This document shows, piece after piece, positions 8,823 through 64,000 of a DNA stretch of 64,000 bases. A program made the position numbers and the translations under genes. The notes beneath the pieces are model-generated. The model saw only the letters and a list, made by a program, of their open reading frames with translations. It did not search any database and was not told the origin of the DNA. Position 1 is the first letter of the stretch. Each line of letters begins with the position of its first letter. The stretch is from Heteronotia binoei. Lineage: Eukaryota. The DNA is taken from contig NC_083226.1 of assembly GCF_032191835.1 (NCBI RefSeq), forward strand, positions 108,562,001 through 108,626,000, read 5' to 3'.

Positions 8823-10810
8823 ATGCTTGCAGACTGCAGCATAGCTGCTAGGCTGCATGAGCAGAGTTTGCTTCCCTGGATGGGAAGAGTCAGGGGGCGC
8901 CCGTTTCAGCGCGCAGAGAAAAAGGCTCCTCGTTGGCTCCTTCGTCTTGGCAGACGATCGGCTGAGGCTCTTCTTTTGTTTTTGGTTGGATGTCGGGGTT
9001 TGTTGGGGCAGTTGACTGGGCAGCGGTGGGTGAAGCATTGGCTGGAGCATCGGCGTCGGCTGGAGCATCGGCTGCAGTGCTGCGGGCTGGCGGCGGTGGC
9101 ATCAGAGGTGGTGGAGGACGTGGCATTGTCCTTCTTGTTGGCTGAGTCTGCCTAGGGTTTGGGGTCTGCTGGGGCAGGGGTTGTGGAGCCCAGGGGTTGG
9201 TCTTTCACCTTTTAATTTTTGAGGGTGTGGGCCTGTGGGGCAACCTGGTTTTTTATTATTGTCCTTGAGGTTGGCAGGTGACCATTTTGGAGAGCCTCCC
9301 CCTCCCACCCATTTTTCTCCTACTGGGGACATTGGTGTGCAGCAGAGGCTTTTGTGGCCATTTTGAGTTCCCTTTCTTCTTCCAGGGGGAAGCCATTTTA
9401 GAGTGGAGCTGCAAGAGGCCATTTTGAGGTCTTGTGCTTGCTATTTAGATTGCTGGTGGAAAAGGGTCGGGCAAGCCCAAAGGAAAAAAGCCAATGCCTA
9501 AGGCACCCAAGGCTCCTGCGAAAAGACCACCACCGCCGTTATCCTCTTCTGATGAGGAGGGTGGTATGGTGGTTGATTCCAATATTGCTTGTAGATTGAG
9601 AGCATTGGAACAGGCAGCGGGCATCCTTTCTCCAGGTGGGGAGGATGGTGTGAGGCAATCTAAGAAGGGTAAACAGGCGAGTATTCTCACCAGGCTGTCT
9701 ATTCTTGAGGGCAGGTCTGGTGGAGTCATGCCCGGCAGGGACGCTGGCCTTTGCGGTCTGGAGGTGGCTTTGATGGCGGCTGGAGCATCTGGGGTTGGTT
9801 TGCCATTGGTTCCTGCTGGATTCGAAGGTATGTCGGGTGATAATTTACAGGCAGGGCCTGGACAGGTTTGACCATGGGGAGCATGGGGGCCTGCTTCAGC
9901 GGCCGGGCAGGGCGCTTCCATGTCAAGCACGGGGGCACCTGCCTCCTCTGCATTGGGCGCGTTTCAGAATTGGGTTTGGCCATATGGGCAAGGCATTTCT
10001 AGTGTGTACCCGGGCGCAGGGCATCCTGGCACGGCTGGTTCCTTTATGGGGGCACCCTCAACATATGGGATGGTGCCTTTTGCTGCTTTGCCATTTGGTG
10101 AGGTTGCCTTGCCGCTGGGGGACCACTTGCTTCCCGTTACTAGGGAAAAAATATTAAAAGGGGAGTACGTGGATATTTTTTCTCTTCTCTTTTGGGAGGT
10201 TGAGAAAAAAGACAAGGAAGAATTGGATGAGAAAGAGAAGGAAAAATGGAAAAAACGGAAGGTGGACAGGACCTGGGCTAATTGGGTTCCTGGGTTCTGT
10301 ATTTATGCCGGGGTGATTGCGAGGGCACAGCCGTGGCGAGCAGCATCCCTGTTCCAGTATTTGGACATAATTTATAAAGGCTATACAGCCTTTAGTGGAC
10401 CAGCCTGGTTACAATATGACCAGGAATTTAGGATGAGGGCTGCCCTGTATCCGTCCCTTCAGTGGGATCTGATCCATCAGCAGCTTTGGCTGCAGGTTAT
10501 GTCCCCAGCTAGGCCTAATCTGGGTGATCGCTCTGATAGTGGTCTATTGGTGAGTAGGTCATTCACATCCGCTGCTGGTTCATCGGGCTCTCCCTGCGGT
10601 GCAGCGGGGCATGCGGTTCAACCCCGCATGCTCTGCTGGGAATTTGGATCCCTTGGGGTATGTAATAAAAAGACGTGCCAGTTCAAGCACAAGTGCCCCA
10701 GGTGTGGTGGTTCCCACTCATTTGACAACTGCCCTAGAGCCCGTGGGCGTAAAAATATGAAGAAGCCTGGTGGGAGCGGAAGAGCCTTTCCAGCTAAGAA
10801 AGGGGCCCAG
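8823..10810 (+). mobile_element. Ngaro/DIRS-type YR retrotransposon, 3'-truncated (leader + ORF1/gag only)
   Basis: ORFs 9494-9871 and 9920-10924 are homologous to gag of the element at 13448-14950 (GEYVDIFSLL, WxxYDxEFR, CWEF..C...C.FKHKCP.CGG.H). Homology stops near 10810. The 5' start ATGCTTGCAG is shared with 57618. Confidence 0.85.
9920..10810 (+). pseudogene. Ngaro gag-like ORF1 core with C-terminal CCCH/CCHC zinc fingers
   Basis: 334-aa ORF; its last ~35 codons run into unrelated flanking DNA. Confidence 0.8.
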
Positions 10811-11414
10811 TGCACAAGCATGAAGTTCCGATTTTTTCTTTTTAAAAAAAATCCAAACATAGACAGCAAAAAAATTGCTTTTGCTAGAGATTTTGGAACA
10901 TTGACTAATGTTAGCCCTGTTTAATTGTGTTTGACAACTCAGATCTTAGTTTAGAACTATGTATGGATTATATAACGAATTTACATTAAAACTGCAGCAC
11001 ATAATTAATCACCCAACTTGCCCAGCATAATGTTTGGCAACTGGCCAGGATTTTAGGTAGGGGTTAAAGCAGGAAATGGGGGCTAGAAATTCCACCTTTC
11101 AGTGCTGTAACAATCCAATTAGATTGAGTATTAGCACATTTCTGAACTGTTTCAAAAGAAAACATGGAGGATTGGGTAGCAGTCAGGTCTCCATTTCATG
11201 TTGTTTTTGGAGCTTGATTAGACCTGATCTAAATTCAAAGTGGACATATACCACCAAACCAAATAGGTTTCTTTTTAACATTTCACCATTGCATTATAGC
11301 TACAGCATATAAAATGTTATTTTGTGTCATGTTATATGATGCAAAATAATTGGCTACCAACAGTACAAAGTTAAACAGAGTTGTTACCCTTCTTTGTCCA
11401 TTCAAGTCAAGTCA

Positions 11415-11615
11415 TTGTGTGTAGAACAGACTTGGAATCCAAAAGCACCTTAGAGACAAACAAAATTTTCCATGGTATAAGCTTTTGTGAGTCAAAGCTC
11501 ACTTTGACACTTCTGACAAAGTGAACTTTGACTCATGTAGGTTTATACTGTGGAAAATTCTGTTCATTTATATAGTGCTATTGGACTCAAATTTTGATTT
11601 GCTATTACAGTCTAA
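11415..11615. mobile_element. Palindromic Penelope-derived non-autonomous element (inverted pLTR-like arms)
   Basis: Arms 11462-11505 and 11518-11559 are reverse complements (about 35/44) and extend outwards. They contain decayed CTGA..GTGAG..CTCAC..GAAA-type motifs. A related fragment lies at 54500-54640. Confidence 0.6.
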
Positions 11616-12235
11616 AATGCCTACCTAACTGAAATTGGGTTTAGAAGAATTTAACACTGCTTAGAATGGCAATGTAAATACAGGAAGACCACCGATAAAT
11701 ATGTTAAAAATAAAACAAAATAAAACAAGCACACCTGAACAGAATTGACTGTATTTAAAGCACTACCGGGAAATGTCTTTTTCTTGTATAACAAAAACTG
11801 TTAGACGAGAAACTACAAAAATATAATGGTTCATAGTTGAAAGGTAAGCCAACAGTTCATTCCACTGCAACAATGCAGCTCAAATTCTGTGCAAGGTTAT
11901 GGGGCACATCCTAGTTCTACCTGCTACTAGTATTGTACTATGAACAGAAACTCACTTCTTTCTTCTTGCCTTGTTAAAATGCAGTCAGGCTTCAGCTACT
12001 GTTATTAGCTCCAAAAACTAGGCCTCATTGTTTGGCAAACACAAAAGTTGAGGTTTGCCATTTCCTGCATTTGAAATATCCCTTAGGTCTTTGCACAAGA
12101 TGATTCTATGCTGCCAAGAATCAAATGCTGTCTGTGCAATCCAATATTATAAAGTTCCTATAAAATGTAATAGTTAAAGTTTTTAACATTAAGCTACAAA
12201 GAAAATGTACACTCAGCAGGCCTAGGACTGTCCAT

Positions 12236-13107
12236 TGTATAAAAAGCAGACACTCTTATTTTTAGATATCAATGTCACATTGCTAATGGGAGTTAGTAAT
12301 GGTAGCACTTGCTATTTATCCCCCATAGCCTCACCTCCCCAAGTGCTTTTCCCCAGCTAATCCGGCCCCTTCCCGCCCACGCCGCCACTCGGCGGTATAG
12401 GGCAGGGGCCGCATTTGCCTCCCTGGATGGAGCCAAGGCAAACGGACCTCTGCCCATCCGGGTATATTTGGGGGCATGGACTGGGGCTTTATTAGCCCAG
12501 CCACGCCTCCTATTGTGCAGTCCTCAGGCACTTTCGGACTGAACGGGAGTGTGTTCAGTCGCTCCGGTTGTGTGGCCTTGGTTTACAGCGGCGGCAGTCT
12601 TTGCTGTGCGGTGTCGAAGTGGAGGAGCGTGCCTTCGTCGGTTTTTCCTCCCTCTCATTTGTGCAGCAGACACTCTTATTTTTTGTATAAAAAACAGACA
12701 CTCTTATTTTTAGATATCAGTGTCACATTGCTAATGGGAGCTAGTAATGGTAGCACTTGCTATTTATCCCCCATAGCCTCACCTCCCCAAGTACTTTTCC
12801 CCAGCTAATCCAGCCCCTTACCGCCCATGCTGCCGCTCGGCGGTATAGGGCAGGGGCCGTGTTTGCCTCCCCGGATGGAGCCAAGGCAAACGGACCTCTG
12901 CCCATCCGGGTATGTTTGGGGGCATGGACTGGGGCCTTATTAGCCAAGCCACGCCTCCTGTTGCGCAGTTCTCGGGCACTTTTGGACTGAACGAGAGTGT
13001 GTTCAGTCGCTCCGGTTGTGTGGCCTTGGTTTACAGCGGCGGCGGTCTTTGCTGTGCGGTGTCAGAGCAGAGGAGCGTGCCTTCATCGGCTTTCCCTCCC
13101 TCTCATT
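12236..13107 (+). repeat. Tandem duplication, 448-bp period, spanning the flank/Ngaro 5' junction
   Basis: 12236-12659 vs 12684-13107, about 30 substitutions by eye (~7%). Confidence 0.95.
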
Positions 13108-13447
13108 CATGAAGTGCCTGAGGCCGTTGACAGGCTGCACATTGGCGCAGCATCAGGTTCGCCACCCCCCCCCCCTTTCTCAGTTTGCGTGGCTTTGGGG
13201 CTGGGCTGTGATTTGGGGGCAAGGCAGGGGTCGGGGTTACTGATACCCCTCTCACCACCACACCCCACTCCCCTCTCCCATCAGTAGAGTTCTAGGGATT
13301 CGGGGTAGGACCTTTTCGTGGTAAAGCAGCAGTACTGCAGTACTATGGGCTGAACGTTCTTGTTTTCTCCCCCCCGCCGCCCGTCAAAGTTAGAGCTCTC
13401 CTTCCTCCCACTCTTGGTAGTGTTTCTAGGGTGTTCCAGGCAGACCC

Positions 13448-14950
13448 ATGGCACCCAGAAAGGGTCAGAGGGTGTCTAAAGGCAAACAGCCCATTAAGAG
13501 AGTGCCTGGGAGGCACATGCCCACTGAGCGCCAGGGGGGGAAGAGGAGGCATGCACCAGTCATGCTATAATCGACCAGCTGGTGACGTTGGAGCGGCAAC
13601 AGGGTTTGGTCCCAGGGTCAGCTGGGCTAGCTAGGGAGTGTAAAGCTGCTTGGACCTCTACCGGGGCCATTGAGCAGGAGGTGCTGGCCCGTCTTTCTAC
13701 TTTACAGGATAAGACCACACGGCCTGGTCCTTCGGGAGTGCCGAGCTGGGATCCACCAGACAATAATCCAGATTACGATGAAGATGGCAATAGTCCGGAT
13801 GGGGCAAGTCTTTCTGGTGGAGCCAGGGGTCTGGTGCCTGTGGTGTTAGCTGTTAATGTGGACGACTCTGATGGTAAGCATGTCTGTCCTGGTAATAATA
13901 GTGGATGGCCCGGGGGGGGTTGGGGGCCCCTCTGCACTACGGGCGCAGCTGGCTCTACAACTATGTTCAGTCCGGGTGATGTTGGGGGGTCACCTAACTT
14001 GCCCTGTGCTTCAGGGGCTTGGGCCCCTGGGGCTCACGGGCAGGTTTTATCTTGGGGAGCTTCTCAGGTGTCTTTGGCTGCTGCTATTCCATCTACCTTG
14101 TCCGGGGCTTCGACCCAGCAGTCGTCGGTGAGGTCCTTACCATGGGGACATCAAATGAGTGGGCAATGGCCTGCCGTATGGCCAGCTGCTCAGTGGGGGG
14201 GGATGGAGTTTGGCCCCGACTCCCTATGGGGCAGTTCCTTTTCAGTGTCGTCTGTTCAGTGTCCCTGCCATGCCCCTGGGGGATCATTTGATGGTGTCGA
14301 CCAGAGAAAAGATCTTGCGTGGGGAGTATGTGGATGTCTTTAGCCTTCTCTATAGGGAACTCAAGAAGAAGGACAAGGACGAACTTGAGGATAAGGACAA
14401 GGAGAAACTCAAGCACAGAAAGGTCGAGAGGAATTGGGCCAACTGGTTACCGGGGATTTTGATTTATGCGGGGGTAATAGCGTGAGCACAGCCTTTACAG
14501 GCGGCTCCGCTATTCCAATACTGTGACATCATTTACAAGGCTTATATGGACTTTTTGGGTGCTGTGTGGCTGCAGTACGACGAGGAGTTCCGTATGAGGG
14601 CAGCATTGAACCCCGCAATTCCCTGGGACCGGGTTAACCAGCAGCTGTGGCTGCAACTCATGTCTCCAGCTAAGCCTAATACCGGTGACAGGTCGGACAG
14701 TGGTCATCTTGTGAGTAAACAGGCAAGTGTGGTGGGTCCCCGCGCAGCAGCGGGGCAGTTGGTTCAACCCCGGCTGCTCTGTTGGGAGTACACGTCACAG
14801 GGCATGTGCAACAGAAAAACATGCAAGTATAAGCATGAGTGCCCGCTGTGTGGGGGTTCGCATGCGTTATCGGCATGCAATAAATCCAAGCACAGACCTG
14901 GGAATAAGTGGTCAGGTGGCAGTGGGAATACCCAATCAGCTAACAAAGGG
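13448..14950 (+). pseudogene. Ngaro ORF1/gag-like, frameshifted
   Basis: ATG 13448 gives MAPRKGQRVSKGKQP (cf. MAPMKEQGRSKGKQP at 60080). Continues through ORFs 13582, 14159 and 14546 to the zinc fingers. Confidence 0.85.
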
Positions 14951-16549
14951 GCCAGCCCCATCAAGCTGACGGTACTTAAGGACCTTTTGGCGGAGTACCC
15001 GAAGGCCAGGGACAGGGAGTACTTGTGGGAAAGATTTCTTTGTGGGTTTCGTATCCCATTCCAGGGCCCCAGAGGACCCTGTATGGCAAGGAATTTATGT
15101 TCAATTCAGGGGATGGAGCACATGGTGAGGGATAAGATCGGGAGGGAGTGCAAGAAGGGCCGGGTATCAGGCCTTTTTGATGCACCCCCTGTCCCGAATT
15201 TGCGGGTATCCCCTTTGGGTGTGGTGCCCAAGAAGGCACCGGGGGAGTTCCAGCTGATTCACCACTTGTCCTACCCAAAAGGGGGGTCGGTGAATGATGC
15301 CATTCCCGACTTCCTATGTACAGTCCAGTATACTTCCTTTGACCAGGCGGTCAAAGTGGTATGGAGTTGTGGGATTGGGGCGGAGATGGCAAAATGTGAC
15401 ATTAAGTCTGCATTTCGCCTTCTGCTGGTGCACCCTGATGACTTTGAACTTTGGGGTTTTATGTTTGATGGTAAGTATTATATGGACAGGGCCTTGCCGA
15501 TGGGTTGCTCCATCTCTTGTTCAGCTTTTGAACGTTTTAGCACCTTTTTGGAATAGGTCCTGTGTAAAAGGACGGACTCAGCTAATTCAGTTCATTATCT
15601 TGATGATTTTTGTTTGTGGGCCCACGGGGGTCGGGCCAGTGCGCCTGGCTGCTTCAGTCTTTTTTATGGTTGGCTGAGGACCTGGGGGTCCTGCTGGCCC
15701 ATGAAAAGACAGAGGGTCCTTCGTTAGTTTTGACTTTTTTGGGTATTGAGTTGGACACAGTGCGGCAGGCTTCATGGCTGCCATTCGAGAAAATCAGGTG
15801 CCTGCGGTTAAAACTGGCATGTTTGAAAGGTAAGCGGAAGATTTCGCTACTGGAGCTCCAGCAGATTGTGGGCCATCTCAACTTTGCATGCAAAGTGGTG
15901 GCACCAGGGAGGGCATTTTTGCGGTGACTGTGTAATGCTATGGGGGCGTTATGAATGCCCCATCACCAGATTAGGATCAGTAGAGGAATGCGTCAGGATT
16001 TTGAGGTATGGGAGCAGTTTTTGTCTTCATTTAATGGGGTTTCCTTTTGGCGTGAGGATATGAGAATTGAGGCTGATCTTCAGATTACCTAGGATGCCAC
16101 GGGATCCATTGGTTTTGGGGTATACTTTCGAGGGCATTGGTGCGCTGAAAGTTGGCCCAGAGAATGGTTGGGCAGCGACCTATGTCGTAATTTGACCTTT
16201 CTTGAGTTTTTTCCAATAGTTGTAGCTTTCAGTTTTGGGAGTGGAGTTGGCTAATCATGTTGTGCATTTTTGGTACGACAACCTGACCGTAGTTCATATT
16301 ATCAATACGTTGACTTCTAAATCTGTTCCCGTTATGGGCCTGGCAAGGGCATTTACTTTGCACTGTTTACATCTGAACATTTTATTTCTCGCTAAGCATG
16401 TGCCAGGTGTGTGCAACAGTGTGGTGGATGCTCTGTCTCGCCGGCAGATGGAGCGATTTCGACAGCTTGCACCAGAAGCCGACCTCCTGCCGGCCCAGAT
16501 GCCCCCAGAGATGCGGCAGCTTGGAGAGTCGAGGCTGACCGGGCAATGA
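14945..16549 (+). pseudogene. Ngaro reverse transcriptase + RNase H
   Basis: SPLGVVPKK, KCDIKSAFRLL, LPMGCSISC, HYLDDF (~15591), then RNase H-like HFWYDNLTVVH and NSVVDALSR; stops and frameshifts present. Confidence 0.92.
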
Positions 16550-17410
16550 TGTTAGCTCTGGCTCCCAGCACCAGGAAGGCCTATAATCGCTCTGTTAAGC
16601 AGTTCCATGCATTTAGGGAACAGGTAGGGTTAGGCAGGCTTTGGCCTATTCCAGCGTTACACCTTATGCAGTTCTGCATCCATTTGAAGGGTAAGGGGCT
16701 TGTAGTTAAGTCTATAAGGGCCAAGCTTGCAGCATTAGCGTTTACGAGTAAAATAAAGGGTTTTGCGGACACCTCAAGCAATTTTAGACTTTGTAAGATG
16801 TTGGAGGGTTGGGCTCGGGAGCAGGGCCCTTGGCCCGAAACTCAGCAACCCTTTTCACCTTCTGTTTTAAGAGGATTGCAGGCAGTGTGGCCTGGAGTTT
16901 GATCCTCAAAGTTCAAGGCTTTATTATTCCAGGCTGCAGCTATGACAGCCTTTTTTGGGGCGCTCAAGGTTAGCGAGCTTGTGGTTAGCTCACACCATGA
17001 CTCTTCTGGCCGTTCCCTTCAGTCTGGTGATTTGAAAATAGCGGGTGACTATGTATCCATTAAGGTTCGACGTTCTAAGACCGATCAGACGCAGAGGGGT
17101 ACTGTTATCACCTTGGGTCCGTGCCTAGATCAGGAAATTTGCCCTGTGATTGCCCTGAAGAGGTACATTGCAGCATGGGGGGATGTGGCCAGCCCCTTAT
17201 TTTGTCATGAAGGCCGGTCACCTTTGACCAAGTTTCAGTTCTGGACCATCACCAGCAGGGCCTTGGAGAGGCTAGGGCTGGGTGGGGTCAGATTTGGGAC
17301 CCACTCTTTCCACATTGGGGTGGCATCTACAGCAGCAGCTTTGGGGATCCTGGAACGGCCATACAGCGGGTGGGCCATTGGCGGTCCACGGCATATAAGG
17401 GTTATGTTTG
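16545..17410 (+). pseudogene. Tyrosine recombinase, with catalytic Arg residues apparently mutated
   Basis: LAPSTRKAY N-terminus. AFFGALKVSEL has K where R is expected, RSKTDQ is present, and HSFHIG has H where R is expected. Confidence 0.9.
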
Positions 17411-17492
17411 CCCATTGGATACCCAACATGCTGATGTATGATACGTTGTTTCCAGTTTTGTGTGATTCATTCTGTTCCTTTCTGTTTTTTAG

Positions 17493-18044
17493 GTGCTGTG
17501 GCGCGGCATGAGAGGTGGAGGATTTTGATCGCTGGCCACAGCATGGTGTTTTGGGTAGCCCGTGAGGCCCGGCGTTCACCAATTGGATCGCCTTCGGTGG
17601 TCCGGGCTCCTGCCTCTCCTTTTCCAAGGGAGAAATGGTCCTCCACCTCACATTTTGGTTATTCACCTTGGTGGTAACAATCTGGGCTTGCTGAAGGGGA
17701 AGGCCCTTTCACTGCAGGCGATCGAAGACCTCAGGGTGATACAGAGCAGGTGGCCCGAGGTGCTGATTTTGTGGTCCGCCATCCTTCCCCGCAGGGTTTG
17801 GAGGGCTGCCTGGGACCCTGCGGGGATTGAAAGGGCTAGGCGCAAGGCCAATATGGCGATCAAGAAGGCACTGGGTGGAGGCTTGGGTGTTTACCTGCCT
17901 CACCCTGCTATAAGGTCGGAGTCAGCGGACCTATATCGGCAGGACGGTGTCCACCTGTCCGTAAAAGGTAACAGGGCATTTTTGCTTGAACTACGGCTGG
18001 GGCTATGGTTGGCCTTGGGCCAACCGGTGGGCCCAAGTGCCTAA
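17493..18044 (+). pseudogene. SGNH/GDSL hydrolase ORF of Ngaro; no ATG of its own, internal deletion/frameshift
   Basis: Blocks ILIAGHS, IHLGGNNLG and DGVH; preceded by a polypyrimidine-AG acceptor at 17491-17492. Confidence 0.88.
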
Positions 18045-18904
18045 GCGGAGGCCTGGCAATGTGGTGGCAGGAGTTTGATTTGGGCTATGTAGGTAACCAG
18101 TGAGCACCCTCGGTTTTCCCTGTTTTCAGGGGAGTAGCGGGATGGGACGGCAGCTGGGCTGTATGGCTCTCTGCGGTGATCCCCGCTATAGAGTTCCCTC
18201 CTCTGGCAGTCCGCTCCTGGGTGGGCGGCATTGCCACTTGGGGGTATTCCCAGCCTTCACCGGCCTAGCAGTAGCCAGTACAAACTGGCTTCTGCCGGGG
18301 GCTGGGTGGCTCGCCCTATCCAGACAATGAAGGGTCACGGGTTTACCTTGGCCTGTCCAGGAGTTTTTAGGTTGCCCCATGCCGTGTTTTGTTCAAAAAG
18401 TTGCCCTGTTTGTTTACCCAATACACCGTGTTGTCTTGTTCTTCCGACTGGTGGGGCAAATTCACTTTCATTTGCAGAGCTCAGCTGAGAAATAAAGCAC
18501 TGAGTGAGTAGAGATATACCAAACTGAGGCAACCCATTATTAAGTAGTTTCTGGTCTGTACCCCTTTAAAATTTGTTCAAAAATCAGAACTTCCATTTTG
18601 TTTGTAGTTGAGGAAGGCCTTTGTCTAAACTAAATGTCTACCACCATCGTTTCAGTTCTACCTATTTTTAGTCACACCAACATCTTACTGAATGGATTAT
18701 GAAAACTTGATATGTTGTTTAATTTCCCTCAAGGATCAACTTCTTCCTTAAAGAATGCCAAGTCCTTGACCCCATCCTGTGGGAATTAATATCACATTCT
18801 AATTAAATAAATATATCACAGCACAACCCACAAATTTTTCTACCTGAACAATGTAAATACTCAGCACATGTATACATGAAATAATAAATTATTATAATTA
18901 TTAC

Positions 18905-35454: not shown

Positions 35455-36826
35455 TTACTTTTAACAGCATATGGGATTCAAAATCAATACTGCACAACTC
35501 TGTAATGCGGCAGTTTCTGCATTTTATATGAAACTAATGAAAGCTGTATAGGTTTTTAGGGAGGTTACTAGAATTTGGACGTTACAGTAAAGGTTTGTGT
35601 ATAAAAGATTTTAACACTTAAAGCTGCTTAGTTTTTACAACATTGTAATGCTGGAACAAGACTTGTAGAAGGTTTTATCAACAGATTTTAGGGGGTTTTG
35701 AATAATATTTTGACACACCTTAATACTCTGTGAAAAAGGCCCATTCATAGAAAGGAGCCCAACTCTCCAACACTTCCTGCATAGGTTCAACATTTAGAAC
35801 CACTGTCATGATGTCTATTTCAGCTGTTTCAGGTATTTTCTATAGTCGAGGCTTCCAACTTTTTCCACTGCTTAGCAAAATTATCCCAGCATTAGTTACC
35901 ATAAACCAACATACATATATGAACATATGAAGCTGCCTTATACTGAAGCAGACCCCTGATCCATCAGAGTCAGTATTGTCTACTCAGACTGGCAGTGGCT
36001 CTCCAGGGTCTGAAGCTGAGGTTTTTCACACCTACCTGCCTGGGTCCTTTTTAGTTGGAGATGCTGGGGATCGAACCTGAGACCTTCTGCTTACCAAGCA
36101 GATGCTCTACCACTGAGCTACCGTCCCTCCCCTTATGTATATCCCGTATGTATTATTAATTGGTTACAATTCTTGTAGAGTTTTTTTGTGGAGTCATATT
36201 TAACAAAAATAATTTAGTTCTAAACATCATAATCATCTTTTAAAACTTCCTGTACAAGTTTAATGTACTTTTGTCCAATACAATTGCGCAATTTTACATG
36301 ATCACAGCGTGTTTTTTGGTCTACATCTATGTATGTTTATTTTCTAGAATCTGTACCTGGAACATCACAAGCTGCTACGCCGTTGCAGGGTGATGGTGCA
36401 CCTCAAAAGAAACGTTCTGTGTCTACCAACAGCCAGAAGGAGCCTAAGCCTAAAAAGAGAAAAACTGACAGTGCAAGAACCAACGAAGGGTGTGTAATAA
36501 GCAATGGTGATCAACCTAAAAAGCAGATGGAATTCACTGAATCTCTTTTCAAACTCACTCAACAATTGAAAGAGAAAGATAATCTTATTAAGAAAGCCAA
36601 GGAGGCCTCTGATGTTGTCTGCAACAAGATCTCCAAGCTGTTTGACAACTATGAGACCGAATTGATTAAAAATTATGCAAAGTACCCAGCGTGTGCTGAT
36701 AGCGCTATACAGTACGGGGGGGCTCTGCCCTACAATGTCTCTGAAGGGGTAAGGGGCTCCCCAGACCTGATGTCTGTTCAAGCTGATGAGGTGGGGGGGG
36801 GAGGATGGAGAAGCACATTCTGCTAG
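34648..36826 (+). CDS. Predicted spliced Maverick left-end ORF (exons 34648-34660, 35279-35329, 36348 onward), possibly the pPolB N-terminus
   Basis: Phase-1 GT-AG junctions join MSGEK-VISQMHPQAATVFKEPE-SVPGTSQAAT... in frame; contains an NLS-like PKPKKRK and a coiled-coil-like stretch. Confidence 0.55.
35910..36132 (-). mobile_element. tRNA-derived SINE inserted in the Maverick
   Basis: Minus head GGGGAGGGACGGTAGCTCAGTGGTAGAGC...GGTTCGATCCCCAGC (A/B boxes) and an (ATATGTTC)-like tail. Confidence 0.85.
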
Positions 36827-39800
36827 CACCAATGTGGTTGGGGAGGGAGCAGCAGAGAGATGTGCAACCTCTCCATCACCTCCCAAAGTCTCCGACAGCC
36901 CCGATGGTGTGGAGGAGGTAAAGGCGGTGCTGGGGGGTCCAAGTGCCTTCCCACAACCTCCCGAAGTCTATGTGGAATGTGTGAGATGGTGGCAGAGGCC
37001 CTATGAAAGATTTAGGTCTTTAGTAACCAGCGAGGAATTTCGCTTTGTAAATTTAGAACACGTGCGTTCCTTTGCACATGCCTTGGAGGTGCTAACAAGG
37101 GGGATCCAGGATGTTCTGGATGAGATTAACGGCGGCATAGATGAGGGAGATTTTGTTCAAATGCGCCTATCGGGGGAAGGTCTACAAAACCCATTATTTT
37201 CATTTAAGAAAAAGAAAGACCATCTCAGCGCTGATGAGTTTCTGGAGTTTGTGGTAAATACGCTGCAAAGCAATAGAGAAATACTCCGCACCGACACACT
37301 GCGCTTAATTGTGACTGTTCCAAAGCCCCTGAGGGCGGTGCTCATCGTAGTATCAAGTTTATCCCTTACAGTTCAATAATTGAAAAAAAAATGGCGTTTT
37401 TTGGTAGATTTTTCAGATTATAACAACAATCTATGCTTCACGGCGGGGCTCATGGGTGTAATGAAAAGAGTGGGGGATCTTTCTGACGTAATCCTTTTAG
37501 AGGCAGCTAGAAAATTAGGATGGTATGATCAGAAAAAGGTGGGTCTCTGTGACATATCAGCAGTTGAGGAACATTTAAAAGTGAACATTCATGTTGTGTT
37601 GTGTTCTGATAAGGGATGGAGTATATTTAAAACGCAGCCCCCAAAATATCCTGAGACCCATTTTATGCTTTTACATAGTGATCATTTTTATGGCATTCTT
37701 CACATTAAGAGATTTTTTTGGGTCTAGGAATTATTGCAGGTATTGTTACACCCTATACAACCAATACCATAATTGTTCTCAATTTTGTAGAATGTGTTCC
37801 ACCGCAGAATGTAAAACGATCCTAGGGACACCTAAGAAATGTCCCAACTGCTGCTTGTATTGTAGCAGCGACTTTTGTTTTAAGAGGCATGGTGAGCTGG
37901 CGGCCCAAGATGAAACAGCATGTCCCTCCAGGGCATGGTGTACAAAACGCAGTACTTACAAGGACGTTATGCATCTGTTCGAAGAGTGTTATAGGAGGGC
38001 ATGTAGACAATGTGGTGGGAAGCTGGAGGATGATGAAGATTTCCACAGTCTGTGTTATTTAGAACCTCTGAAACAGCCCAATGTTTCGTCAAAATACATA
38101 TTTTATGATTTTGAATGCACACAAGACAACGTAGGTGGGGTGCATTGGCCCAATTATGTTTTTGCTAAAGCCTTGGGGGAAGATAAAAAATGGCGAGCCA
38201 GTGGTAAATCTTGGGAATTCAGGGGTGAAACGTGTGTTTATCAGTTTGTTAACACAATTACAGCACAAAAGCAGTTTAAGCATACCACCTTCATTGCCCA
38301 TAACTCCAAGGCTTACGATTCTTACTTTATTGTTAAGCAGCTGATTGAGGAGAGGTTGGATCCCAAACTGGTAGCCTTAGGGGGAAAGCTAATGTGCGTG
38401 AACATAAAAGGTCTCAACATAAAATTCATTGATTCGTTGAACCATCTTCCCATGGTCCTCTCTAAGCTGCCAAAAGTTCTAGGATTTTCCCAGAGTAAGG
38501 GCTATTTTTGTCATTTTTTCAACACTGAGGAAAATCATTCTTATGTGGGACTTTTACCATAGCCCAAATACTACGGGATAGACCTGATGATGCCCGAAGA
38601 AAGGGAGGCTTTCTTAAAATGGCACGAGGAGAAAAAGTCTAGAATTTTTGATCTCCAAAAAGAACTAGCTTTCTATTGCCAGCAAGATGTGAACATTCTG
38701 GAACAGGCTTGTACGTTGAACCGAACCGAAATTATGAGCATGACAGCCCAGGATGGTCTCAGTATAGATCCCCTACAATATCTCATATTGGTGGGGGTCT
38801 GTTTAGCCATGTACAGGTTTAATTTTCTGACACCTCTCTCGGTGTCAGTTTGGTGTAGTGGTTAAGTGTGCGGACTCTTATCTGGGAGAACCGGGTTTGA
38901 TTCCCCACTCCTCCACTTGCACCTGCTAGCATGGCCTTGGGTCAGCCATAGCTCTGGCAGAGGTTGTCCTTGAAAGGGCAGCTGCTGTGAGAGCCCTCTC
39001 CAGCCCCACCCACCTCACAGGGTGTCTGTTGTGGGGGAGGGAGATAAAGGAGACTGTGAGCCGCTCTGAGACTCTTCGGAGTGGAGGGCGGGATATAAAT
39101 CCAATATCATCTTCTTCTTCTTTGGTGGCCATTCCTCCTCCAGACCACTATCACAGGGAAACAAAGAGGTTTTCAACTTCTTCTATTCAGTGGCTCTGCT
39201 ACTTGGAGTACTCTGAAAAGATCCAAATACAACACTCGTTAAAGGGACAGGAATGTAAGGTTGGGAAGTATTTCCTAGATGGGTTTGCGGTGCTGAATGG
39301 GAAGAAAACAGCTTTTGAGTTTAACGGCTGCTATTGGCACGGCTGTCCACAATGTTATGAACCTAACAAAATCAATAGATTAGCAGGGAAAACATTTGAC
39401 GAGCTTTACTGTGCTACAAGGCGGAAGTATGATTACCTTAAAAGGATGGGGTTTCAAGTTGAGAGCATATGGGAGCACAAGTGGAACCGTCTTAAGAACA
39501 CTGACGAGGCTGTGAAAGCTTTTCTTAAAGCAGCAGACTTTCCTGATCCTCTGATTCCTAGAGATGCACTTTTGGGGGGGCGGACTAATGCCATTACCCT
39601 GTACTACAAAGCTGGAGAAGGAAAGCAAATACACTACTACGATTTCACCAGTCTGTACCCATTTGTGAATGCGACAAAGGTGTAACCTCTAGGCCACCCC
39701 GAGATCGTTCAAAATAATTTTGTGCCTCTCACAGAATATTTTGGATTGGCTAAGGTTAAAGTTTATCCCCTGAGAGGTCTTTTTTCCCCTGTGTTGCCAT

Positions 39801-40889
39801 CCTGGGTGGGTGGGAAGCTGTTTTTTACACTATGCAGGACCTGCGCTGAAACAAGACAACAGGAGACATGTTGGCATTCTGATGAGGAGAGGGCTCTGAC
39901 GGGCATGTGGGTCACCGTAGAACTGCATGTGGCTCTTGCCAAAGGCTACAGGGTTGTGAAAATCTTTGAAGTTTGGCATTTTGAGGGGAAAAGCAGGCAG
40001 CTCTTTGCAAAATATATTAAAAGACATCTCAGGCAGAAGCAGGAATCTTCTGGCTACCCAGATTGGTATGTGACACAGGCTGATAAAGAGAAATACATTG
40101 CTGATTTTTACAAAAAGGAAGGTGTCCTTCTCCACCCCAAGCATATCTGCCCCAACCCCGCAAAGCGCCAGATTGCTAAGCTTTCCCTCAATTCTTTGTG
40201 GGGTAAATTTGCACAGAGAACGAACTTGCCAAACACACCAAACACTGTGAGAGACCCAAACCGCTTTTTTGAGCGGGTATATTCAGAGAATTACAAGCCC
40301 ACAGCCTGCAGTTTCATCTGCGATGATGTAGCCTGGGTGCCTTGGAAGCACGCTGGGGAGCGTTTGACAGCTCCCAGATACACAAATGTGTTCATAGCTG
40401 CTTTTACCACAGCTTATGCATGATTAGAACTCCACGCTCTTATCAAAAGTTTAGGAGAGAGGTGCTTGTACTCAGATACTGATTCCATGATCTTTGTGAG
40501 CCGTCCCTGTGACTCTAATTCTCCCCCTAGTATGCTATCTAGGTCAGCTGAGTGAAGTGCCCGCGGGGCAGTATATAATGGAGTTTGTTTCTGCGGGTCC
40601 TAAGACTTACGGATACAAGCTGTCAGGAGGGGAAGGGTGTCTGAAAGTTAAGGGTGTTACTCTGAATGCCTCTAATAGTGAAAAGATCCATTTTGACAGT
40701 TTGAAGGATTTGGTTTTCACGCACGTTTCTGGCTCTGAGCCTGGTGAGATCACGGTGAGTCACCCAGGCACAGTCACAGACAAAAAGAACTTTGTTATTA
40801 AAACAAAACTTCTTAAAAAAACTCAGAAGGTGGTTTATGACAAACGAGTGCTCGGGGAGGGGTTTAAGAGTCTGCCCTACGGTTATTAA
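36786..40889 (+). pseudogene. polB: Protein-primed family B DNA polymerase with N-terminal TP-like/vOTU-like region, disrupted
   Basis: YDFEC, AHNSKAYDSYF, FIDSLNHL, GGRT, YDFTSLYP, KLSLNSLWGKF, YSDTD (~40468), GPKTYGY; several frameshifts and stops plus a SINE insertion. Confidence 0.96.
38841..39120 (+). mobile_element. MIR/Ther-1-like (Squam3-type) SINE inserted in pPolB
   Basis: Head CAGTTTGGTGTAGTGGTTAAG..GGGTTTGATTCCCC and a (TCT)n tail; the pPolB reading NFLTPLS|LVAIPPP is split by it. Confidence 0.9.
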
Positions 40890-40890
40890 A

Positions 40891-41522
40891 ATGGATAAAA
40901 GGTGGCGCCTTCTTTCTCGGCCATCCTGGCAGGACCCAGCAATTGCGGGAAAAGTTATTTTATAAAAAAATTTACTTGTGAACGCAGTCTATGCTTTCTG
41001 TCATGCCTGAAAATATTGTGTGGTTTTACGCATGCCGGCAACCATTGTATGAAGAATTGCTCAGACACTATTCTTTTATAAAGTTTGTAGAGGATTTGCC
41101 CTCCAATTTGAATGATGATGAATTGCTACCTCTTAATAAAATAAACCTCGTCATTGTGGATGATCTGATGGCATGTGCCTCTGATAATCAGAAATCTGAG
41201 TATTATTTACATCATACAGAATCTATTCTGCCAGGGGGAAAGCAGCAGAACCATCAATCTGAACACCAAGTACATGGTGTTATTTAAAAACCCCAGAAAT
41301 AAATTGCAAATAGCGACTCTAGCCAGACAGATGTACCCCGGGAAAGCGGCCTTTTTTATGGAGGCTTATGAAGATGCCACAGGAAAGCCCTTCGACTACC
41401 TGATGGTGGATTTAAACGCGACCACGCTGGAATCTTACAGACTTCGTACAGGGATGTTCCCCCCAGACCTCCCGGTCTGCTATGTTATTAAAAAAAAAGT
41501 CGGGGGGATTAAAAGGTGCTGA
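40891..41522 (+). pseudogene. A32/FtsK-like packaging ATPase, frameshifted
   Basis: Walker A AGPSNCGKS, Walker B LVIVDDLM, then QNLF..G..SRTINLNTKYMVLFKNPR. Confidence 0.93.
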
Positions 41523-41573
41523 TGCTCAACTCTGCAGGGCTTTTAAGGAGAGTCAGCCTGGCACGGAGGAAGC

Positions 41574-41899
41574 ATGTCTGCATGCTTAAAGAGAAACGGA
41601 AGTCTCCTGAGACTCATCTCCAAATCACCCCCTCATCTAAGGAATGCTATTCTGTGCGCTGCTCCAAACGATTTAATAAAGGCTAACGATTTAATAAACA
41701 TGCTGAAAGGCATCATCCCCCTGTCACAGTGGCAGAAGACTGTCCTGCAATTAAAACGGTCCCTGATTAAAACCCTGAGCAGCATTAAAACTCCCCTTAC
41801 AAAGAAGAAGAAACTGGTGAGACAGCCGGGGGGGGCCTTATAGGGTCCTTGCTGGGTTTTGTTCTGCCTTTGCTCACCAGCTTTTTAACACCCTCCTGA
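41574..41899 (+). pseudogene. Small basic Maverick core-type protein (PM-like) with an amphipathic C-terminus; frameshift in a G8 run
   Basis: 89-aa basic ORF; a frame change at 41828-41835 extends it with LIGSLLGFVLPLLTSFLTPS* to a TGA overlapping the next ATG. Confidence 0.7.
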
Positions 41900-42513
41900 T
41901 GGAACATGCGGAGAAGATGTACCTGGTCCCTAGCCAGCAGTTGGATCGTCTAACTAATCAGCAGCCCTCTGAGAGTGAATCCATCAGGCCCGCCATTGTG
42001 CACTCTCTAGACAAGGAGATGAAAACGGTTCTAGAGAGGGAGGATTTGTCCAAATACCAGGAGGCCAAGGTCTACACCGCTCTTCTTCAGAAATATCTCA
42101 CGCACGTCAGAATGGGTGAGGAAGAGAAAACTAAGCTGGATCTGTATCTCCCGCAAACTGAGTTAACACCTGATGTCAATAAAAAAAATGCAACCGTTTT
42201 TGAAAAGGTGATAGAGAATCTACCACATCAAAACAGGAACAATGCCTGTGTGCTGCTAAAGAAAATGGATCAAAACAAAGAAATTGCCTCTTGGGATGAA
42301 AGGGGAACTTTTCTTTACAGAGGAGCCCCTGTTGCTGGAAGCCACCTGCTTGACTTGGTCAAGGCTATTACTCAGACTCGCCCTCCCTCTTCTGCCCTCT
42401 CACCTAAAGGCATGGACGTGTTTATGAGGGCTCTGGCCAAACTCAACGTCCCCTCTTCAGTGGTGGGCACCCCGGCTGCTAGAAAAATGCTGGAAGACCT
42501 GAAAAGCCCATAG
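41899..42513 (+). CDS. Conserved Maverick protein of unknown function (PW-like by position)
   Basis: 204-aa open ORF (MEHAEKMYLVP...SWDERGTFLYRG); naming rests on gene order only. Confidence 0.65.
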   Translation: MEHAEKMYLVPSQQLDRLTNQQPSESESIRPAIVHSLDKEMKTVLEREDLSKYQEAKVYTALLQKYLTHVRMGEEEKTKLDLYLPQTELTPDVNKKNATVFEKVIENLPHQNRNNACVLLKKMDQNKEIASWDERGTFLYRGAPVAGSHLLDLVKAITQTRPPSSALSPKGMDVFMRALAKLNVPSSVVGTPAARKMLEDLKSP

Positions 42514-42651
42514 CCTCCGGCTTTAAAGAGCACGCTCGTAATTTCTTCTAAAAAAAAAAAAACAGCCTGCGTGGTTGACTATGGAAGAATAATTTTTTTT
42601 GTAAATGCAAATCTTTTGGCTCTGATTATTTTATGGACAAAAATGGACATT

Positions 42652-43203
42652 TTAATATCCCAACAGATTTTCATTAGGGGGACCACAAGAAACACAGGTT
42701 TGGGTGCGGGTGTACTTGTTTTGTAAAGTCCTTGAATTGTTCAGGGTGCTTTTTGCAAAACTCACGACCATCCTGTTGTTCAGTTTGGGAGTGGGAGAAT
42801 ACATCTTCACAATCTCGTGAAAGGGGGCAGCATTGCAGTGGTGGTGGAGAAAAAACCGGCAGTGCTGTCCGCATGTGTTAGATGTTGATCCTTGGAGATG
42901 GTTCCTCTGGAAACGCACCTCGTTAGAATTCTTGTTTAAAAAGTCCATAATGGCAGGCGGAAAGAGGGGGCTAGAGGGTGGGTTGCCGAATGAGTAAAAA
43001 AACTTGGAGGTCCCGGGGTCGCTGAGATAAATAGCCAGCCAATGTTCTCCCGGGAGGTAGTGGGGATGAGTGTTCACCACTAAAGAGATGGGCCTCTGGG
43101 ACAGCCTTTCAACAGGTAGCTGATCGCTGGGGAAGATGCTCAAGAAGCTTTTTCGAGTGTGAGGATTGTCTAGTAAGACACGTGTTAGCTGGACAGTATC
43201 CAT
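42652..43203 (-). CDS. Adenain-like cysteine protease (catalytic Asp appears mutated)
   Basis: VVNTHPHYLPGEHWLAIY, FFYSFG (Asp expected where Tyr is), LQG..SNTCGQHC. Confidence 0.92.
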   Translation of the reverse strand: MDTVQLTRVLLDNPHTRKSFLSIFPSDQLPVERLSQRPISLVVNTHPHYLPGEHWLAIYLSDPGTSKFFYSFGNPPSSPLFPPAIMDFLNKNSNEVRFQRNHLQGSTSNTCGQHCRFFLHHHCNAAPFHEIVKMYSPTPKLNNRMVVSFAKSTLNNSRTLQNKYTRTQTCVSCGPPNENLLGY

Positions 43204-43204
43204 G

Positions 43205-44506: not shown

Positions 44507-44513
44507 GGCCCGA

Positions 44514-46799: not shown

Positions 46800-46871
46800 G
46801 ACACTTTGCTCTCTTTTGCCACAATGAAAGTATTTTTTATTATGCTGCATATATACAGAAAAACTGGATCT

Positions 46872-47970: not shown

Positions 47971-48289
47971 GGGAAAGCACCACCGACACTCATTGGTGTG
48001 TTTAAATGTCGCAGGGGACACGCCCTGTGACAACCAGGGTCGGCTGACAACATGTCAGATATATGGTACAACGACATTTCTGGCACTTGCACTTCCCACC
48101 TGTAAACTATTGACTTGGGGGGGGGGGTCCTAAAGCAATGTGTCTGTTTTTGAAAACTGTTGCATCTCCACATTTCTCTAAATAACGTCTGTGTTGCAAA
48201 ACACGCTTTTCCTCAAACAATATGAAGCCTGCTACACCAGTGGCTCACCCTCCTTTCCCCCCTTAGGAAACAGCAGGCATTCCTTGGGG

Positions 48290-48450
48290 GGGGGGTGGAT
48301 TTCTAGCCGCCCCCTTGGGGACTGTTGCATCACTCCCCCCATAAGGAAACATACGGCGTTTGTTTTTGTGTGTGTGCGCGCATGTGTGGGCAGGGCAGCT
48401 GTCACTTTGGAATGCGGCTTGATGATGATAGGGTACCCTAACCTACTACT
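48290..48450 (-). repeat. Maverick right TIR
   Basis: Reverse complement of 34290-34450. Confidence 0.95.
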
Positions 48451-59892: not shown

Positions 59893-60639
59893 GAGCTGCT
59901 GGGGGTCTTGCTTGATCTTTCTCTCCCCTAGTTGTGTCGGGTGGCTAAAGGGTGCATTAACCTTCTGGGCACCCATCCACTTATTGTGTCAATTAGGCTT
60001 GACAGAGGAACTTCAGACCGGCGGGGAAGGTGTCACACAGTTACTGCTGTGGGCCTGGCTGCTGGTTGGAGGCGTCCTGATGGCACCCATGAAAGAGCAG
60101 GGCAGGTCTAAGGGCAAACAGCCCGCCCGCCCGGCCCGGGGGCGAGGCCTGCAGCCCGGTCCTGCTGAAGAGCCGGGGCAGGGGAAGCAGGTCCGAAAGG
60201 CCATTATGGGCCAGTTAGAGGCCCTCGAGCAGGAAAGAGTTGCTAGGGGTGCTCCCATTTGGGAGGGGCGTCGTCATGCCTCTGGGCACCCGGCGCGGCT
60301 AACTTTTGAGACGGAGGTGCTGGCCCGCTTGTCTGCTTTACAGGGCGGCGCACCTGGGCCCGAACCTCAATTGGAACCGGACCAGGACGATGGTCCAGAC
60401 AAGGGTCCGTCGGGTGAACAGGCGAGCAGCGGTGCATCTGGAGGCGGAGTGCAGCAGACCCCGGGCGGGGCTGGAACGCCCTTGGGTATTGGTGGTAAGC
60501 TCCTGTTGCAGCAGACACAAGGGTGGCCCTGGGGTCCTATTCAAATGCCATCCCTCCCCCCGGCGGCAGGGGGTGGGGCTTGGCGCACTGGGCTGTCCGG
60601 AACTCCCGCCGAGCGGTGGGGTTCCGGGCTGCCTTTGGC

Positions 60640-61270
60640 TTGGGGCATGCAGGGCTGCACAAGTTTGGCCAGTTTGGCATGGGGATGCGGTGGCGGTGGC
60701 TGCTGCTGCTGCAAGGCAGCACGAGTTCGGCCAGTTCGGCATGGGGACGTGGCGGCGGCTGCTGCTGCAGGGCGGCACGAGTTTGGCCAGTTTGGCTTGG
60801 GGACGCGGCAGCGGTGGCTGCTGCTGCTGCAAGGCAGTACGAGTTCGGCCAGTTTGGCATGGGGACGCGGCGGCGGCTACTGCTGCAGGGCGGCACGAGT
60901 TCGGCCAGTTTGGCTTGGGGACGTGGCGGCGGTGGCTGCTGCTGCAAGGCAGCACAAGTTCGGCCAGTTCGGCATGGGGACGCGGCTGCTGCTGCAGGGC
61001 AGCAAGAGTTTGGCCAGTTCGGCGTGGGGACGTGGCAGCGGCTGCTGCTGCTGTTGCTTCAGGGAAGCATGAGTTTGGCCAGTTCGGCATGGGGATGCGG
61101 CGGCGGCTGCTGCTGCAGGGCAGCACGAGTTTGGCCAGTTTGGCTTGGGGACCTGGCGGCGGTGGCCCTGCTGCTGCAAGGCATCACGAGTTTGGCCAGT
61201 TCGGCGTGGGGACGCGGCGGCTGCTGCTGCTGCAGGGCAGCACGAGTTTGGCCAGTTCCTGCTTGGGGAT
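60640..61270. repeat. GC-rich minisatellite, 11 units of ~51-64 bp, inside Ngaro ORF1
   Basis: Core GCACGAGTT(T/C)GGCCAGTT(T/C)GGC(A/T/G)TGGGGA repeated 11 times, separated by GCG/GCT runs. Confidence 0.95.
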
Positions 61271-64000
61271 GCGGAGTGGTATCGCGGGGGTGCAGAGAGC
61301 CTGAGTTTTGGGGGTTGGAGGGCTCACGGTGAGGCTGGAGGGCCTCATGCCCCCCTTTCCCCCCCATGGTGGCTGAGCTGAGGGGGTGGTTTGAGGAGTG
61401 TGGGTTCCTTTTGCAATCTTTTGAGTTGTGGGTAGACGCCCCCCCCCTCCGCTTGTGGTCTTGGAGAGGGGCATTGGCTTGGTTGCAGGGCATCTGCTTA
61501 GCAAGCCGAGGGGCCCAGTTGCTATCCCCAACAGCCCCAACTAAAAAAGGGTCCAGGCAAATGGGCATAGAAAACCTCAGCTGGAGGCCCAGTGAGCTGC
61601 TGCCAATCTGTGCAGACAATACTGAATCTGACGGACCCACGGTCTGATTCTGTATAAGGCAGCTTCATATGGTCATATGTTAGTTTAATGTTCTCCCCTT
61701 TACCTCACAGCGGGCCAGCCGGTTCAATCCTGGCTGTTATGCTGGGAGTTTGCTTCTAAGGGAGTGTGCCCCAGAAAACCCTGCAATTTCAAGCACAAGT
61801 GTCCACTTTGCAGTGGGGCTCACGCCTTCTCCGCCTGTAGCAGGTCGAAGCCGAGGCCCGGGGGTAGGCGCCCCGGCGGGGGCGGTGGTGGCAGTCAGCA
61901 GCCCCCTGGAAAAGGGGCCCAGCCCCATTCGACTGATGGTACTCAGTAAATTATTGAGTAAGTACCCACGTAAAATAGATGGCCAGTATCTGTCAGAGGG
62001 GTTTTCTTTGGGGTTTCGGATCCCTTATCAGGGGCCTAGGGCCCCCCCTTTTTGGCTGCTAATCTTCCGTCAGTGGCGGGTCTTGAGCATGCAGTTAGGG
62101 CTAAGATCGCCAAAGAGTGTCAGGAGGGCAGGGTCTTAGGACCCTTTGATACGCCACCTGTACCCACATTGTGCGTATCTCCCTTTGGGGTGGGCCAGGG
62201 GAATATCGCCTCATTCTTCACCGGTTCTACCCCAGAGGGGCGTCGGTAAATTATGGAATTATGTTCGGTACGGTATACTTCCTTTGACCAGTCGGTCAAA
62301 GTACTGTGGGGTTTCAAGTACATCAAGTCGGCATTTCGCCTCTTGCCAGTTCATCCCAAGGATTTCGAGCTCCTGGGTTTTTTTTGTTTTGAGAGTAAAT
62401 TTTACATGGATCGCGCCCTCCCGATGGGGTGCTCGGTCTCCTGCGCTGCATTCGAGCGCTTTAGCTCCTTGGTTGAGTGGGCATTACAGGATAGGACCGG
62501 GCTTAATGACACGGCGCACTACCGGGGCGACTACCTTTTGTCGGTCCAGCGGACACAAGGTGATGCGTCTGGCTCTTACATGCTTTTCAGAAGTTGGCCA
62601 TCAAGCTGGGGTGAGCAACTTGTCAACCAGTTTGTGCTTTTCTGGGGCGATAACATGGCGGTAGTTCATGTTATCAACTCCTTGACCTCTAAGTCGTGTT
62701 GGTGATGAACCCGGTTAGGTTATTCACACTTCGTTACCTCCGGTGGAATATTTAGTTCCTGACAGGGCACGTACCCGGAGGCTGCAATGGGGTGGTGGAC
62801 GCTCTATCTCGCCAATAGATGGAGCGCTTTCAGCAGCTCGCCCCGGAAGTGGACTCGCGGCCGGCGCAAATGCCCCTGGACCTCTGGTAATTTGGGAAGC
62901 TGAAGCTGGTAGGGACATTCAGCTGGCTTTGGCACCTAGTACCAGAAGGGCTTATGGTAGAGCGGCTTCCCTATTCCGGGAGTTTCGGAGGGCCGCTGCG
63001 CTGCAGGATTGCTGGCCGATTTCGACGGCTCATATTATGCAATTCTGCGTGTTTCAGAAAGAGAGGTTTGGGGTTGAGGACTATTTGGGGCCAACTGGCG
63101 GCGTTGGCCTTTATTAGTAAAGCCCATGGGTTCGTTGAGAAGACCTACTAACAGAAGGGCATACGACAGAGCGGCTTCCCAATTCCGGGCATTTGGGAGC
63201 ACCGCGGGACTGCATTTTAGTTGGCTGGTTCCATGGCATGGGTTATGCAGTTCCCCTTTCGGGGCCGCTCTGCTTCATGCGGCCTTGTTGATGGCCTTTT
63301 TCGGCGCTATGTATTAGCGAGTTGGTTGTGCAGTCTAAGACTGACACTGCGGGGCGGGCGCCCCAGGCCAGGGATGTCAACATTGGTTGGCCTGTGGAGG
63401 GCGGCAGCCTTTTGAACCAGGTGCGCCCGTTGGTCACCTAGGGGGTATTTGTGCAGGGCGGTGGTTTCATCACCTCTTGGTTATTATCTGTTCTGACAAT
63501 TTTCTGTTTTTCAGGTGCTGTGGCTCATAGTGAGAGGCATCGTGTTCTCATCTGCGCGCACAGCAGGGTGTCCAGGCGGCCCATCAAGCCAGGCGGTCTC
63601 CAACGGGCACCCAGCTGGGCTGCAGCGACGGGGCAGTTGGGGAATGGCTGGGTCGCCGGGGGCTGGTGTTGGCTGGGGATTAGGCCATCGTAGTGCGGAG
63701 AGAGGAGGGCACCTCCTCCGCACATCTGGGTCATTCACTTGGGTGGTTTCAGGGGAGCACCTATGGCCTAGCACCAAGTGTGCAGGTGGTCTGTATGAAC
63801 TGCAGATGGGCTACATGGCTCAGTGCGGGGACTGCAGATCACGGAACAGCCTCACCTGAGCGTATCTTTCCATGGGGGATTGACGCTAGCACAGGTGGTG
63901 AATGGCTCGGGGCCTGGCCGCTCAGCAACAACCTGAATCTGGCGAGCTTGTGCTGGGGGCAGGGTGGCTCGCCCTTTGGACAAGGCGGGGTCAGGGTGTG

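Follow-up and report, generated by a model that had tools for sequence, protein, structure and literature searches.

Ngaro retrotransposons of squamates very probably carry a conserved phase-1 GT-AG intron, such that spliced RNA is likely to encode a fusion of the N-terminus of open reading frame 1 (ORF1) to an SGNH-hydrolase (esterase) domain, and unspliced RNA is likely to serve Gag, reverse transcriptase (RT) and tyrosine recombinase (YR) and to act as the genome. Splicing itself we regard as close to certain, and the fusion is, by inference, quite probably translated. Removal of this 3-4 kb intron would join the first 120-155 codons of ORF1 to the hydrolase frame, giving a protein of 320-340 residues; because the spliced RNA keeps the terminal repeats, the RT and YR of the element would at times copy and insert it, most likely acting in trans. 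The window from which we started, a 64,000-nucleotide stretch of the Heteronotia binoei genome (NC_083226.1, positions 108,562,001 to 108,626,000), holds three decayed Ngaro copies, mapped against an intact relative (E1, ~8.8-10.8 kb; E2, 13.4-18.5 kb; E3, 59-64 kb; Table 1).

A first-pass annotation had predicted the fusion from splice signals in these copies, and the signals are present where it placed them (slashes mark splice points): donors GAAG/GTATGT (9828), GATG/GTAAGC (13874) and GGTG/GTAAGC (60495), acceptors TTTTTTAG/GTGCTGTG in E2 (17491-17492) and TTTTTCAG/GTGCTGTG in E3 (63513-63514), and a 138-residue open exon in E3 that runs 415 nt from an ATG at 60080 to the donor. Its assignment of phase 1 to all three donors holds for E3, but in E2 it depends on reading the ORF1 frame that follows a frameshift (the ATG-to-donor distance is 426 nt, with four stops in the ATG frame). 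Exon 2 of E3 reads GAVAHSERHRVLICAHS, with AHS in place of the hydrolase motif GHS and a stop after 59 codons; E1 breaks off near 10810, before RT, and has no hydrolase. All three copies are dead and none could make the fusion protein today; the splice test was therefore taken from family copies elsewhere in the genome. A search of the H. binoei genome (G000) with the E2 hydrolase returned 9,530 first-look candidates, and 115 stretches of 6-9.5 kb were taken from the top matches of several queries, a sample skewed to young copies and in part redundant.

Intron-less copies and conserved splice sites

The spliced junction exists as DNA in three genomic copies (L115, L168 and L200) that lack exactly the GT-AG segment. 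Searching the genome with the RefSeq protein P0021 revealed one place that matches residues 1-278 unbroken; this is L115, an element with full split repeats in which the ORF1 N-terminus is joined directly to the hydrolase. Of the 40 matches to a DNA search with the L115 junction, one is L115 itself and one a second intron-less copy (L135/L168); in the other 38 the match breaks off at the junction base. GT stands at the break in 27 of the 28 retrieved unspliced relatives of L115, and TTTTAG precedes exon 2 in the relatives. Exon 1 of L115 is 94.6% identical to that of unspliced L169 versus 77.8% to that of spliced L168, suggesting that L115 and L168 arose in separate events. The third copy, L200, was found with the junction pattern of the E3 family; its two flanks are 97.4-99.8% identical to those of four unspliced siblings, and the GTAAGC-to-TTTCAG segment of 3,035-3,041 nt between them is missing (99.0-99.7% identity and 3,041 nt missing against L196). 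Both L115 and L200 have native termini at both ends and no poly(A), from which we infer that spliced RNA was made and then copied and reinserted by the enzymes of the element itself. In its repeats L200 resembles unspliced L199, with A1 and a single B; L168 is truncated at its 3' end. No 5'-UTR intron is found in L115, the 5' untranslated region being colinear with its parent except for one insertion.

Several other candidates were rejected. The junction-pattern matches at L201 and L165/L167 are put down to chance, there being no Ngaro coding sequence around them; L132 (=L008; G000:C3:126834000-126843000) has a deletion from inside YR to the acceptor AG and no GT donor; and the breakpoints of L080, L084 and L090 are not splice sites.

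Donor and acceptor are kept at the nucleotide level beyond coding need. Across 100 loci assembled for the donor (59 with an open ORF1), the aligned donor glycine reads G/GT in 58 of the 59 open ORF1s and is followed by AAG or AGG in 57; the N-terminal halves of ORF1 fall to 23% identity across the set. After clustering at 80% identity the donor GGT is kept in 18 of 18 clusters, a count that is not a formal probability because the clusters are related. By comparison, GGT makes up 28% of the other Gly codons, all 19 of the other conserved Gly columns vary, and GGT followed by AAG or AGG occurs in only 10 of 90 other Gly-Lys/Arg pairs.

At the 3' end, 105 loci were examined, 96 of them anchored on the hydrolase N-terminal motif and compared by alignment. 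The acceptor column is AG in every anchored copy (TAG in 62, CAG in 34) and in phase 1 in 94; the 10 bases 5' of it are mostly pyrimidines, an A peak lies at -18 to -20, and YTRAY occurs between -40 and -12 in 76 of the 96. The GT donor, branch point, pyrimidine tract and YAG acceptor of a U2-type spliceosomal intron are all present. Sequence conservation begins abruptly at the acceptor AG, and this is the only acceptor-like column common to all 22 subfamily representatives, the runner-up being common to 12 (each representative has 12-26 acceptor-like sites). The spacer between the YR stop and the acceptor varies in length and occurs in all three frames, on which ground read-through from YR into the hydrolase is rejected; the spacer was read in 85 of 99 loci, 6 of them at wrong sites, and the acceptor counts above come from the alignment. 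Donor, acceptor and phase, the three properties whose conservation the first-pass annotation had singled out as a check, are all kept across subfamilies.

The intron is thus a conserved feature of a known element class, with the intron-less copies as evidence of its use. Young copies have A1...B1-A2-B2 split direct repeats and four ORFs, all four open in 21; self-alignment of L031, L036, L040, L044, L045 and L046 gives A repeats of 178-180 nt and B repeats of 382-390 nt, mostly 99-100% identical, and E2 in the window retains one B copy. The intact element L031 carries a gag-like ORF1 (with Cys/His knuckles), RT and YR ORFs in that order, with Pfam matches to RVT_1 (E 6e-12), Phage_integrase (E 2e-5, below the curated cut-off) and, after YR, Lipase_GDSL_2 (E 8e-9). 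Pfam returned no methyltransferase match in L031 and no RNase H match on its RT ORF; the segment after RT is provisionally assigned to RNase H from its position and known motifs. The hydrolase motifs GHS, GGND and DGVH are found in L031, L036, L040, L044 and most fusion proteins, supplying the block I Ser, block III Asn and block V D-x-x-H of an SGNH/GDSL hydrolase; blocks III and V align with the esterase structure 4C1B. Judged by repeats, ORF order and Pfam domains, the elements fit Ngaro as defined in PMC9210276 and PMC8547959, the former describing vertebrate members as having no methyltransferase and a hydrolase ORF after YR.

The fusion in gene models and as a predicted protein

The same intron appears in RefSeq. 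Model P0021 (LOC132583378), 100% identical to L114, has an exon 1 of 379 nt and an intron of 3,522 nt (G/GTAGGT...TTTTAG), and its junction lies at the very point that the first-pass annotation had chosen as the donor of E1. A profile of the ORF1 N-terminus is matched by 21 of 180 proteins, none of which contains ORF1 core, RT or YR; going by source names, the fusion models come from Eublepharis, Heteronotia, Elgaria, Anolis sagrei, Hemicordylus, Rhineura and Pogona. One 394-residue fusion (P0062) lies on a 1,677-bp Logan contig, for which RNA and DNA origins are alike possible and which at that length has no room for the intron. Frog, salamander and caecilian models have long low-complexity N-termini on the same hydrolase; a search with the N-terminus of newt P0034 matched only P0034 and P0035 and did not link the amphibian N-termini to ORF1. 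The fusion explains many "uncharacterized" lizard RefSeq genes of 320-420 residues as transposon products.

The hydrolase also ends, or is repeated in, a number of host-like proteins (P0124, P0140, P0055, P0081, P0044, P0041 and P0190). The carriers include cold-shock-domain proteins of two fishes, ZNF318-like proteins of a lizard and a snake, a DUSP12 isoform, a six-domain gecko protein and a caecilian SPRY-domain isoform; they may reflect domestication, exon capture via the acceptor, or a host source of the domain.

In a structure model of the fusion protein P0011 (25-row alignment, mean pLDDT 75) helices are predicted at residues 36-54 and 73-94, followed by a disordered linker and a confident alpha/beta domain at 149-336, such that two predicted helices of ~20 residues stand ahead of the predicted esterase. 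The N-terminus is basic (8-9 Lys/Arg in the first 30 residues), and the best solved relative by profile match is the esterase of zebrafish ZfL2-1 ORF1p (4C1B, E 7.8e-8). PMC3905857 describes three parts in ZfL2-1 ORF1p: a basic motif, a coiled coil that forms dimers, and an esterase with the capacity to bind acidic phospholipids. The esterase ORF1p of CR1/L2 elements (ZfL2-1; 4C1A/4C1B) and the Ngaro fusion have in common a basic motif, helical segment, loose linker and C-terminal SGNH esterase, as predicted for the fusion; ZfL2-1 ORF1p, however, is one contiguous ORF of a non-LTR element, whereas here splicing would build the protein, and the element is of the YR type and has full-length ORF1 as well. 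For ZfL2-1 alone is there proof of a coiled coil and of lipid binding, the squamate layout being predicted from sequence and model.

By analogy with ZfL2-1, the esterase would act on membrane lipids, by binding or cutting them, and would be held to ORF1 particles or to RNA by the basic tail and the two short predicted helices. A membrane-binding helper attached to ORF1 particles via their common N-terminus is, on this comparison, a tentative proposal for the role of the fusion. We would give no greater weight to a broader version, which is possible but on the doubtful side, whereby a spliced accessory protein of vertebrate Ngaro elements, with the same N-terminal helices as Gag, co-assembles with particles of full-length ORF1 and contributes a lipid-binding esterase for membrane targeting or exit, tetrapod-wide, its splicing being also the route of the hydrolase exon into host genes. 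If true, splicing would have given Ngaro its own counterpart of the esterase ORF1p of CR1/L2 elements.

Competing explanations and related systems

Several observations weigh against a spliced fusion as the general expression route. The loci were picked from top matches and include near-identical copies, and on a crude count of U1 matches some other GT in ORF1 can score better than the donor. The RefSeq models are themselves predictions; in 12 of the 180 proteins the hydrolase is joined to pieces of RT, YR or core rather than to the ORF1 N-terminus. The intron-less copies are rare (3 versus 9,530-16,088 first-look candidates), their hydrolase frames are now broken in all three, and four junction patterns for other subfamilies gave no true intron-less copy in a non-exhaustive search. 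Finally, 24 of the 96 anchored copies, and 11 of the 21 with all four ORFs intact, have an in-frame ATG in the 60 nt that precede the acceptor.

The alternative that survives best accepts splicing and places its selected role in regulation: splicing would draw transcripts away from the gag-pol-YR pool, or make a truncated-Gag inhibitor that limits copy number, the esterase being secondary. The fusion product does have the ORF1 N-terminus without core and knuckles, the E3-type subfamily keeps donor and acceptor despite a broken hydrolase, and according to PMC13343379 esterase activity is apparently dispensable for transposition in some CR1/L2 elements. Yet subfamilies and species alike retain GHS, GGND, DGVH and phase 1, a conservation that suggests selection on an active, in-frame enzyme, and we consider a primarily regulatory role unlikely.

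The upstream ATGs bear on a second alternative, in which splicing is a minor event and unspliced RNA is the main source of the hydrolase: ribosomes that have finished YR would restart at an ATG close by, or translation would begin at the Met after GHS. Besides the ATG of the 11 intact copies, the Xenopus study treats the hydrolase as a fourth, overlapping ORF (PMC9210276). Against this, 10 of the 21 intact copies have no upstream in-frame ATG, an in-frame stop lies within 60 nt in 49 of the 96 copies, and the ATG positions differ (18, 27, 33, 42 and 51 nt, that of L031 being 27 nt); an ATG in about a quarter of copies is roughly, as estimated from base frequencies, the chance level for a T/G-rich spacer. 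Met follows GHS in only 34 of 96 copies, and a start there would lose the presumed nucleophile Ser. The first-pass annotation had described the hydrolase as having no ATG, and had held that an in-frame ATG in intact copies, or YR read-through, would count against splicing. That description needs amending for E2, which has an in-frame ATG at 17543, right after the Ser of GHS, and for the 11 intact family copies; it stands in that no ATG position is conserved. Splicing is the only hydrolase expression route open to all subfamilies, with a second route possible in some because of their upstream ATG; mainly unspliced expression we judge very unlikely.

That the intron-less copies instead arose by deletion of DNA, or by template switching of RT where short sequences match, with the motifs kept for another reason, is barely credible: internal deletions are common in the family (L064, L067, L080, L084, L090), the one in L132 reaches the acceptor but has no GT donor, and donor and acceptor of the E3 family have GGT in common, but both ends are exact in three copies of two families, the L115 family shares only one base (G/GT versus AG/AT), and the branch-point/pyrimidine profile, the codon-level donor constraint and the RefSeq intron mark the same two bases.

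A spliced RNA with the hydrolase as second exon sets the squamate elements apart from their closest described counterparts. The Xenopus Ngaro-like elements DIRS-53_XT and DIRS-54_XT have the same A1...B1-A2-B2 repeats and the same order of gag-like, RT/RNase H, YR and SGNH regions; their hydrolase is presented in PMC9210276 as a separate ORF with no proven function, whereas in squamates it is a second exon fused to ORF1. The strings "splic" and "intron" occur 0 times in the main text of PMC9210276, the supplements of which may bear on ORF annotation. Full-text literature searches brought up no account of a spliced hydrolase RNA in Ngaro or DIRS elements, in line with the first-pass view that the route is not well described; the expression of extra ORFs in the DIRS order and the role of the Ngaro hydrolase are treated as open questions in PMC9210276 and PMC6681497.

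LTR elements share the principle that a single transcription unit supplies the genome as unspliced RNA and, through a spliced RNA, a separate protein. Gypsy/retroviral env and foamy virus Bet are made from spliced subgenomic RNAs. A spliced short gag RNA is reported for Ty1/copia elements (PMC5580714). The copia splice, however, yields Gag alone and env is a membrane glycoprotein, whereas here the product would be an enzyme with ~130 ORF1 residues fused to it, and the intron takes in the gag core, pol and integrase region as a whole. The term "env-like" used by the first-pass annotation therefore suits the expression route and not the product, whose layout resembles the CR1/L2 esterase ORF1p: env has a signal peptide and is a transmembrane fusion glycoprotein, the Ngaro fusion has a basic N-terminus and an SGNH hydrolase, and env identity is not claimed.

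The intron-less copies show a YR retrotransposon using host splicing, and a spliced RNA that is mobilisable with native ends amounts to a natural version of the intron-reporter assay. Splicing would also explain how a long-unexplained enzyme gene without a conserved start codon is expressed in Ngaro elements. With a likely real protein defined, activity, lipid binding and co-assembly become testable on the right construct.

The window copies and further observations

Table 1. Parts of the three Ngaro copies, in window coordinates
Feature	Position	Strand	Remark
E1 exon-1 coding part (ORF1 N-terminus; first codon ATT)	9449..9827	+	family members L051-L070
E1 5' splice site G/GTATGT, phase 1 (family: G/GTAGGT)	9828..9833	+	= exon 1 end of RefSeq model P0021
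E1 remainder of ORF1, truncated; no RT, YR or hydrolase in window copy	9834..10810	+	
E2 exon-1 coding part (ORF1 N-terminus), frameshift near 13520	13448..13873	+	
E2 intron, 3,619 nt, GTAAGC...TTTTAG; contains ORF1 core, RT/RNase H, YR	13874..17492	+	
E2 ORF1 core, Cys/His knuckles	14198..14950	+	72% to intact L031
E2 RT/RNase H, broken	14963..16546	+	
E2 tyrosine recombinase, broken	16516..17417	+	
E2 polypyrimidine tract and AG acceptor	17460..17492	+	
E2 exon 2, SGNH hydrolase (GHS, GGN, DGVH), frameshift near 17590	17493..18044	+	
E2 3' split direct repeat B	18100..18460	+	76% to both B copies of L031
E3 exon-1 coding part, 138 codons + 1 nt, open	60080..60494	+	
E3 intron, 3,020 nt, GTAAGC...CTGAC...TTTCAG; broken RT and YR	60495..63514	+	
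E3 tandem-expanded ORF1 linker, inside intron	60631-61283	+	
E3 exon 2, degenerate hydrolase	63515..63821	+	

The E3 subfamily is multi-copy (window 59184-64000; L071-L077; L196-L199), with RT, YR and hydrolase broken and donor and acceptor kept; its repeats are 99-100% identical in L196-L198, a mark of recent spread. RT and YR are gone from the related copies L080, L084 and L090, in which ORF1 is still open and the hydrolase and its acceptor are present; these copies are possibly a non-autonomous family.

Two features concern expression of the other ORFs. The sequence AAAGGG(G)CCC is present at the ORF1/RT (+1) overlap in 40 of 55 open ORF1s (L031:3760-3796; window about 14950-14975) and may be a site at which ribosomes shift frame to express RT. 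The L031-type subfamily alone has an ATG of the YR frame that overlaps the stop of RT (ATGA, L031:5366-5369); similarity to YR begins upstream of this ATG, and other subfamilies are without it.

Elsewhere in the window, two 300-nt copies (94% identical) lie upstream of E2 at 12235-12534 and 12683-12982 and include Ngaro A-repeat-like sequence, and a GC-rich cluster of ORFs of 120-325 residues, on both strands, occupies 36300-50600.

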